A stretch of 64,000 nucleotides of DNA from a virus, in IMG/VR virus record IMGVR_UViG_3300018916_000001, positions 1-64,000 of that record. The stretch is one strand, 5' to 3'. The stretch's first letter is position 1. Every line of letters begins with the position of its first letter. A program made the position numbers and the translations under genes. Of the stretch, positions 25,025 to 25,482 are shown in pieces. The notes beneath the pieces were generated by a model. That model saw nothing but the letters and a program-made list of their open reading frames with translations. It had not been told where the DNA came from and did no database searches.

Positions 25025-25447
25025 GAGATTAGCTATAGAGTTTTGATTAGTAAATGATTATCTCATACTACTAATACCCATTGCTGGTAAAACTATTAAG
25101 TTATCAAGGTTCGGGGGATATACCTTAATCAAGAATCTTTCATTAACTGAATGCTTTGTCGGTAACTACAGATGCTAGTCAAAAGGGATATTAGATTTTA
25201 GAGTAGAGGAAACTGCTACATAGGCAAGAACTCCTAGAGATTTTTAGTTAGTCCGTCTTCAGTATAGATAACAGCTCTATAAAAGAGAATGTGACCTATA
25301 TCCAAGATGGATGAGTAGGGATTAGCAATAAGTTAGCTATCTGGATATCAAGTACCCATAGTTCCCTTCCTCAGTTAATGAACTCCCAGCAAGTTAGAGA
25401 GTGATAGAGATAGTTAGCTTTAGGTGTTTCGCTTTCCTTTTCTCTAT
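25025..25447 (-). ncRNA. candidate large structured non-coding RNA or leader (~420 nt)
   Basis: ORF-free; nested complementary segments 25139-25150/25371-25382 (12 bp perfect), 25081-25087/25386-25392 and 25298-25304/25342-25348, plus local hairpins; begins just after a promoter. Confidence 0.5.
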
Positions 25448-25453
25448 ATATAC

Positions 25454-25482
25454 ATAATAGCTTGATACCCTATAGACCACAA
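25454..25482 (-). promoter_or_regulatory. sigma70-type promoter for the leftward region
   Basis: TTGTGG-17 nt-TATTAT on the minus strand. Confidence 0.55.

Follow-up and report, generated by a model that had tools for sequence, protein, structure and literature searches.

A putative boxA leader ahead of a tRNA-like RNA at the head of a gene array in a probable cyanophage

The interval 25025-25482 of virus record IMGVR_UViG_3300018916_000001 is probably the 5' untranslated leader of an early transcription unit on the minus strand, in which a boxA of the rRNA-operon (rrn) type is followed by a tRNA-capped RNA. The window analysed here is the first 64 kb of this 151,199-bp IMG/VR record, which has direct terminal repeats and 31% G+C. 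A previous reading of the letters without database searches (the sequence-only reading) had taken the interval for a single nested RNA of ~420 nt. However, the interval spans three units, namely the leader (25447-25113), boxA (25112-25093) and the 5' quarter of a ~270-nt RNA (25088-24817), and relatives do not conserve the nested fold. No other feature of the interval is as informative as boxA, which that reading had overlooked. What is directly supported is that the parts are conserved and that the tRNA-like RNA and a 5' stem-loop covary; we infer the transcript start, the binding of Nus factors, antitermination and processing by RNase P. The locus is best described as joining a known type of system, the boxA-dependent antitermination leader, to an RNA family without catalogued relative.

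The interval lies in a gap of 907 nt (24804-25710) that contains no open reading frame (ORF) of at least 60 amino acids (aa), as previously claimed, and whose longest stop-free stretch is 52 codons. The gap separates an array of minus-strand genes, running from 24773 to at least 18937, from a lone plus-strand gene (25711-26385). The interval had been placed at the head of the early region, and it does stand at the head of this long array, directly downstream of a conserved promoter.

Relatives were collected from the contigs of homologues of the 224-aa product of the plus-strand gene and by metagenome scans, giving ~19 loci. Nearly all of them keep a gap of 866-1831 nt without ORFs of at least 70 aa upstream of the flanking gene, down to 41% protein identity; only in L044 and L031/L039 is the gap interrupted, by short ORFs of 72-84 aa. 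The gap is a mosaic, and its blocks are combined differently among phages. For example, L002 has a flanking protein 98% identical to that of the window, yet only 25093-25184, 25202-25238 and 25516-25710 are in common. L027 and L029 are ~78% identical to the window throughout, except for a replaced block at 25113-25195, and L031/L039 pair the central leader module of the window with a second sequence type (group 2) of the ~270-nt RNA. Searches of a phage database with the region and the flanking gene, at the DNA and protein levels, gave no match, and 19-mer and 16-mer DNA scans of viral contigs returned one close relative and chance matches only (e.g. L004, in a coding region).

BoxA and the tRNA-like RNA behind it

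The 20-nt motif GAACCTTGATAACTTAATAG (25093-25112, minus strand) combines an rrn-type boxA with a D4-like motif and matches the boxA/D4 of cyanobacterial rRNA operons. Of 19 related contigs scanned, 17 carry it, and 15 of these were analysed further; the 151-kb phage genome holds a single exact copy. In the cyanobacterial 16S-23S internal transcribed spacer, boxA is GAACCTTGAAAA and the adjacent D4 is CTGCATA (PMC8461337). Compared with this boxA, the phage sequence GAACCTTGATAA agrees at 11 of 12 positions in the window and at all 12 in L037 and L044, and it continues into a D4-like tail. The motif sits between the conserved -10 box and the ~270-nt tRNA-like RNA in RNA-sense orientation. Its orientation, position and sequence together fit an antiterminator of the NusB/S10 type on the minus-strand RNA; we infer from them that NusB/S10 would bind at 25112-25093 and bring about antitermination. 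A reading of the motif as a -35/-10 promoter was rejected, there being no -10 at a sensible spacing.

The motif is not confined to this phage family. A degenerate boxA/D4 pattern was found in 57 viral contigs (~5 expected by chance, as an estimate), all but two of them unrelated to this phage, and in more than 120 bacterial genomes, mostly of Clostridia, Cyanobacteria and Chloroflexi. In the unrelated phages L054, L065, L071, L073, L079 and L094, and in the viral contig L057, the 20-mer stands 11-15 nt upstream of tRNA arrays; the first tRNA behind boxA in the phage arrays is tRNA-Lys, and six loci hold 11-26 tRNAs. In addition, it heads arrays of 9 to ~30 tRNAs in Microcoleus and Crinalium (L125, L126, L158), at the same distance except in L126, where it stands ~140 nt upstream of the array. 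The orientation of boxA relative to these arrays is always RNA-sense, and the 20-mer may generally mark the head of stable-RNA units. In the Pseudanabaena phages Pam2 and PA-SR01, the short boxA pattern was indistinguishable from the control. No clear boxB or boxC-like element was recognised at the locus; meanwhile, hairpins precede boxA in every relative, drawn from at least four unrelated module types.

Behind boxA lies a structured RNA of ~270 nt (24817-25088, minus strand), which begins four nt past boxA in the window and whose acceptor-like closing stem is stacked on a T-arm. The closing stem (ACCAGC, 25088-25083, with GCU-A-GGU, 24823-24817) pairs the six bases that immediately follow the T-arm with another six, located 2-4 nt downstream of the 20-mer in most relatives and 16-23 nt downstream in loci with insertions. 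Eight variant pairs occur in 11 of the 15 loci (ACCAGC/GCU-GGU, ACCUGC/GCAGGU, ACCGAU/AUCGGU, ACCGAU/GUCGGU, ACUGGC/GUCAGU, GCUGAC/GUCAGU, GACCGAU/AUCGGUU and ACCCUAG/UUUAGGGU), and the duplex energies of matched loci beat cross-locus ones (p = 3e-4). An alignment of six loci (A4), in which helices altered on both sides lie between conserved blocks, was evaluated with an explicit structure and with shuffle and slid controls; 93.9% of its cells are paired, and 17 pairs are changed on both sides, compared with 6.3±1.9 in shuffles (0/500) and 1-6 in slid controls. The T-arm AGUGG-UUCGAUU-CCACU (24825-24841) has compensatory changes at four of five pairs, including AAAGG/CCUUU in L029 and GUAAG/CUUAC in L048. 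Inside the RNA, a 7-bp helix of GAUAUCU (25014-25008) and AGAUAUC (24950-24944) is paired in all cells, and five of its seven pairs are compensatory. Covariation among homologues, which had been proposed as a check of the interval, is thus strong for 25088-24817, but it is unconvincing for the central leader module and the long-range leader helices.

The group 2 RNAs (L002, L031, L033, L035 and L037) have the T-loop UGCAAUU, and RNAalifold finds their closing stem and T-arm unaided, with 15 of 41 pairs compensatory. Most of the 15 loci combine the acceptor stem with a 5-bp T-stem and a 7-nt T-loop of U-N-N-R-A type, which is the minihelix shape of RNase P substrates; the T-stem is imperfect in L032, L035 and L044. 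The ATTAGTA/TACTAAT hairpin (25046-25075; arms at 25046 and 25069) that the sequence-only reading had noticed is real, but it is a variable hairpin of the ~270-nt RNA and not of the leader: L047 has a shorter form of it, and L048 and L044 have a TAGC/GCTA hairpin in its place. The many G-U pairs of the ~270-nt RNA would be A-C mismatches on the other strand, and its fold energy is lower on the minus strand in 12 of 15 loci, which places the RNA on the minus strand.

Several other identities were considered for the ~270-nt RNA. The claim that a tRNA-like series follows holds as far as the T-arm at 24841-24825 is concerned; however, ARAGORN found no tRNA or transfer-messenger RNA (tmRNA) in the window or in nine related loci. 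Only the acceptor-like stem and the T-arm of a tRNA are present, no cloverleaf with D-arm and anticodon arm was seen, and the Rfam tRNA model gave no match at E up to 10. A tmRNA was rejected as well: the acceptor reads ACC.../...GGU, G3-U70 and CCA are missing, neither ARAGORN nor Rfam reports one, and there is no conserved tag frame because indels break the candidate frames. An attP site carrying a host tRNA 3' end does not explain why the stem's 5' strand, at a distance of 260 nt, covaries, and was rejected. In a local 74-nt reading of 24818-24891, the local acceptor pairing is lost in L027, L048 and L044 and the long-range one is kept, and the GAACC/GGUUU pairing suggested by RNAalifold breaks in L048 and L044. 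Meanwhile, no Rfam family was found at the gathering threshold in the window, and the region at E up to 10 and nine related loci gave only chance matches of small nucleolar RNA type, so no catalogued family emerged from the Rfam check. The comparison with GOLLD and ROOL drawn in the sequence-only reading therefore finds no covariance-model match at either level, but the suggested functional tie of the interval to tRNA-like elements is supported. The ~270-nt RNA is well supported by covariation, has no Rfam family and is most likely new.

Three smaller minus-strand elements of similar shape were observed between genes of the array, at 24043-24101, 22208-22272 and 15813-15868. In each, a closing stem of 6 bp stacks on a T-arm, whose loop is UUCGAUU, UGCAACU and UUGAAGU, respectively, and a (U/A)UUUC or CUUU tail comes next, as at the end of the ~270-nt RNA. 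A fourth small element (24345-24416) has a different fold. In addition, patches at ~24305-24416, 23998-24070 and 22722-22787 are 86-91% identical to L002, which is above the neighbouring genes.

Promoter, leader and flanking genes

The promoter TTGTGG-17-TATTAT of the sequence-only reading is present on the minus strand, and its two halves fared differently. The -10 box TATTAT (25454-25459), separated by a 17-nt spacer from TTGTGG, is kept in nine relatives, which have TATAAT, TAAAAT, TATATT or TACTAT at the homologous position, followed by a conserved A(G/A)ATACAT(G/A)A. However, the -35-like hexamer TTGTGG (25477-25482) is weak and mostly not conserved, the relatives having ACCTAC-like sequences; L033 has a full promoter, TTGACA-18-TACTAT. 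Downstream, all nine leaders that were folded show a stem-loop of 42-48 nt beginning 0-3 nt from the predicted +1, seven nt past the -10 box. In the window, the predicted +1 is the A at 25447, and the stem-loop ATAGAGA/TCTCTAT occupies 25404-25447 (minus strand). The stem sequences vary by lineage (AUAGAGA/UCUCUAU in the window, and UGAAGG/CCUUCA, GAGAGG/CCUCUC and AGCA/UGCU elsewhere). They were compared by single-sequence folds, and a MAFFT/RNAalifold alignment did not register the pairs. Such differing stems in a stem-loop that sits at the predicted +1 argue well, if indirectly, for a primary 5' end at ~25447, where a minus-strand transcript would start.

The distance from the predicted +1 to boxA is 324-539 nt in all relatives. 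The central conserved module of the leader (25196-25409, minus strand) holds the ATATCCA/TGGATAT and TATAGA/TCTATA hairpins; it is 88-90% identical to L027/L029 and 81% to L031/L039, is partly common to L033, L047 and L002, and is more conserved than the whole region (~78%). Every pairing motif listed in the sequence-only reading exists in the sequence: TTGCTGG at 25081 with CCAGCAA at 25386, ATATCCA at 25298 with TGGATAT at 25342, TATAGA at 25263 with TCTATA at 25276, and AAGGT at 25106 with ACCTT at 25122. Their standing in relatives differs. The TTGCTGG/CCAGCAA helix is contradicted: covariation assigns CCAGCAA to the closing stem, as its 5' strand, and TTGCTGG sits in the loop of a local hairpin, ACUCUC/GGGAGU (25382-25402, minus strand, found by RNAalifold), whose stem is kept in L033 and L047 with a different loop; moreover, L031/L039 retain TTGCTGG though their closing-stem sequence differs. 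ATATCCA/TGGATAT is conserved, with a CCG/CGG variant in L033, but an alternative partner, (U/C)GGGUA, covaries equally well, and the fold around it is therefore ambiguous. AGCTA/TAGCT has only 5 bp, with arms in the loop of the 5' stem-loop and inside the ~270-nt RNA, and is uninformative.

The perfect 12-bp pairing is also present, its RNA-sense 5' arm lying at 25371-25382 and its 3' arm at 25139-25150 (minus strand), in a pre-boxA module termed B1. A perfect inverted repeat of at least 12 bp appears in 2.3% of 1000 dinucleotide shuffles. The duplex has p values of ~0.002 in the window, 0.01 in L033 and 0.05 (marginal) in L039, with the partner 21-46 nt upstream of boxA each time. As a family-wide helix it does not hold, lacking significant support in five of the eight relatives tested: it is not significant in L027/L029, and in L002, L032 and L037, which are 72-83% identical to the module 25093-25184, the homologue of the 3' arm has no significant upstream partner. 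The helix may be lineage-specific or due to chance, and we give it somewhat less than an even chance of being real. The pre-boxA modules are of at least four unrelated and interchangeable types, L033 and L035 being among the loci in which they differ. Type B2 (GGCUCAU-hairpin-AUGAUGGAAGCGAC), 70 nt before boxA in L039, L047 and L048, is common to phages whose flanking proteins are only ~41% identical; its hairpin shows compensatory changes, and the pre-boxA hairpins covary between L047 and L048.

In folding energy, the gain over shuffled sequence is modest, the interval 25025-25482 reaching z = -2.26 on the minus strand (equalled by 1/100 shuffles) and z = -0.97 on the plus. The suggestion of a new large non-coding RNA (ncRNA) or processing leader is right in that the region is non-coding with real RNA structure, and 'processing leader' comes close; the unit and its boundaries have to be redrawn.

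The first gene of the array has a ribosome-binding site, AAGGAG (24787-24782), and a likely true ATG at 24773-24771 (minus strand). The listed ORF start at 24803 falls within a conserved hairpin, and the ATG at 24773 gives 117 aa, not 127. This hairpin, CUUCC-UACUAAU-GGGAG (24796-24813, minus strand), lies between the ~270-nt RNA and the gene; it is conserved in L002, L027 and L031 and swapped for hairpins of CCCGG...CCGGG type in L033, L035, L047 and L048. Further along the co-oriented array downstream of boxA, strong hairpins resembling intrinsic terminators, with 13-bp stems and U-runs, occur on the minus strand at 22800-22770 and 17911-17880; they are candidate sites of regulated read-through.

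On the other side, the plus-strand gene 25711-26385 stands alone among minus-strand genes, and its 224-aa product has ~25 homologues, always beside a long ORF-free gap. PHROGs and Pfam gave nothing informative for the flanking genes, the 224-aa product being without a match in either. One homologue is labelled 'YjcR' in one source, a name used for small-terminase-like DNA binders. The stretch 25483-25710 is probably the 5' UTR (untranslated region) or control region of this gene. A purine-rich block at ~25500-25600, kept even in distant relatives, and an imperfect 25-nt inverted repeat (25527-25551/25601-25625) were observed there on the plus strand.

The genome is that of a tailed phage, with a Phage_cap_E capsid protein (55887-57053) and a large terminase (45554-47218). 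By far the best named relatives of the major capsid protein are those of the ~140-kb Pseudanabaena cyanophages Pam2 and PA-SR01 (E = 2e-41, 30.6% identity over 93% of the length). This kinship suggests a filamentous-cyanobacterial host, and the phage of ~151 kb is probably a cyanophage.

Proposed mechanism and rival explanations

In the reading proposed here, transcription would start at ~25447, downstream of the conserved -10 box, and the first 44 nt would fold into a protective 5' stem-loop, to be followed by the mosaic, hairpin-rich leader of ~290 nt. BoxA at 25112-25093 would then bind host NusB/S10, and by analogy with rrn operons and lambda nut the polymerase would become termination-resistant and RNA-chaperoning. 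Such a complex chaperones long-range helices in rrn operons; here it would help to close the stem whose 5' strand starts 4 nt after boxA. Pairing of the ends of the ~270-nt RNA would set an acceptor-like stem on the T-arm, the minimal shape for RNase P and tRNA processing. From this shape, RNase P would be expected to cut just 3' of boxA, and 3' processing of the tRNA type to take place at the conserved GGU-UUUC tail. The modified polymerase would finally run on into the array from 24773 to at least 18937, reading through hairpin-plus-U sites such as 22800-22770 and 17911-17880.

A bolder and more tentative idea is that the phage family builds a miniature 'rRNA operon' around a new class of ~270-nt tRNA-mimic RNA, with co-transcriptional folding followed by a termination-resistant early operon. 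In most relatives, 2-4 nt separate boxA from the 5' strand of the closing helix, so that a Nus-modified polymerase would hold this strand until the 3' strand emerges ~260 nt later. The early operon would be punctuated by the smaller acceptor/T minihelices, and the swappable pre-boxA hairpin modules could bind phage-specific proteins as boxB-like sites, cf. the boxB-N pairs of lambdoid phages.

Several points weigh against the boxA-leader reading. The window promoter fails a sigma-70 consensus scan, and boxA lies ~335 nt from the proposed start, farther than in rrn leaders. The leader weakly beats shuffles in folding, with z = -1.10 in the window and a family mean of -1.65 on the minus versus -1.14 on the plus strand. 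Covariation of the central module is weak and its internal fold ambiguous, which makes a structural role for most of 25025-25482 tentative. Watson-Crick covariation alone does not fix the strand, and the start site, strand of expression and processing are predictions from sequence. In addition, the 20-mer is also found in Clostridia and Chloroflexi, so that the host assignment and the Nus binding are drawn by homology only.

It is unlikely that the locus encodes one stable ncRNA of ~630 nt (25447 to ~24817), in the manner of GOLLD, ROOL or OLE, which would comprise the leader, boxA and the tRNA-like domain and have its central domain closed by the 12-bp helix. Such a unit would account for the folding excess of the interval (z = -2.26), for a 12-bp helix that exceeds chance in the window and recurs in analogous form in L033 and L039, 21-46 nt upstream of boxA, for the ORF-free state of the whole gap in nearly all relatives, and for the covarying pre-boxA hairpins of L047 and L048. 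However, the leader is a mosaic of at least four module types and the tRNA-like RNA swaps independently of it (e.g. in L031/L039), five of eight relatives do not significantly support the helix, Rfam has no match, and the acceptor/T minihelix predicts cleavage between the two halves. The opposite view, that the leader from +1 to boxA is a drifting spacer without structure-dependent function and its helices are chance pairings in AT-rich sequence, draws on the leader z-score of -1.10, the 12-bp inverted repeat seen in 2.3% of shuffles, the weak covariation of the central module and the mosaic leader. We consider it quite improbable, as the central module (81-90%) is more conserved than the region (~78%), all relatives keep a leader of 324-539 nt, and several local hairpins keep pairing through sequence change.

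Compensatory changes, including G-U pairs, between arms up to 270 nt apart fit RNA and not operators; boxA is RNA-sense relative to tRNA arrays elsewhere, GC skew does not switch at 25 kb, and the gap sequence has no repeat elsewhere in the phage genome. These findings make it very unlikely that the region acts as DNA, whether as a divergent promoter/operator or as a replication or packaging site with inverted repeats as protein-binding sites, despite its location between divergent genes, a near-palindromic -10 region (TATTATA in relatives) that could fire both ways, and the 'YjcR' label on one homologue of the flanking gene. Least probable of all is a functional plus-strand transcript through 25113-25482, i.e. 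a long 5' UTR or an antisense RNA, with the minus-strand features of the leader being incidental. The minimum free energies of the leader are as low or lower on the plus strand, the z-scores of L039 and L048 are better there, the conserved TATTAT also reads as a plus-strand -10, and the purine-rich block at 25500-25600 upstream of the plus-strand gene is conserved. However, transcription begun on the plus strand at the shared -10 would lead away from the interval. The minus-strand +1 is where the 5' stem-loop stands, boxA and the tRNA-like RNA are in sense on the minus strand, and that strand also has the better mean leader z-score.

Comparison with known systems

Processive antitermination at boxA is a textbook feature of rRNA operons and lambdoid phages. 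We found no paper on boxA antitermination in cyanophage-like viruses, or on boxA as a general head signal of phage stable-RNA units. The locus offers testable parts in its conserved promoter and boxA, its covarying RNA and the downstream terminators, at which read-through can be measured. It indicates that tRNA-shaped ends can cap much larger phage RNAs, which bears on the hijacking of RNase P and other tRNA enzymes and on how phages process long early transcripts. The 20-nt motif also offers a practical way to search cyanobacteria, Clostridia and their phages for stable-RNA units.

Among the known RNAs, GOLLD and ROOL are likewise large, ORF-free, phage-borne and tied to tRNA-type elements; however, the element described here is smaller and modular, and no covariance model matches it even at E up to 10. 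Like tmRNA, the ~270-nt RNA pairs its 5' and 3' ends into an acceptor stem adjoining a T-arm and holds a large structured insert, but its acceptor begins A-U, C-G, C-G, without G3-U70, and it has neither tag frame nor CCA. The stable RNAs 'species 1 and 2' of T4 (rnaC and rnaD) are tRNA-like phage RNAs, and acceptor/T minihelices are model substrates of RNase P. As in these species, a phage-encoded RNA, here putatively stable, has a tRNA-like acceptor/T end and no anticodon function, and processing by tRNA enzymes is expected. However, the ~270-nt RNA far exceeds them in size, having an insert of ~240 nt made up of several covarying helices, is unrelated in sequence, and has no encoded CCA.

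The nutL and nutR sites of lambda resemble the locus in being an element of a phage early-operon leader, here a putative antiterminator, with a variable hairpin module beside a conserved boxA. In contrast to lambda, the locus has its variable modules upstream and not downstream of boxA, an N-like protein was not identified, and the boxA is of host rrn type, that of lambda being degenerate. The rrn operons themselves differ from the locus in other respects. Here boxA is phage-encoded, lies ~335 nt from the putative start, and precedes a ~270-nt RNA and protein genes, not rRNA; clear boxB and boxC elements were not seen, and Nus binding is predicted by homology. The likeness to rrn operons lies in the sequence match of boxA (11/12, and 12/12 in relatives), its D4-like continuation and its RNA sense. 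It also lies in the arrangement, as the phage boxA stands upstream of an untranslated structured RNA, immediately 5' of a long-range closing helix, and, according to two papers (PMC8461337; PMC10250234), boxA in rrn operons is placed before the leader-trailer helix of the pre-rRNA.

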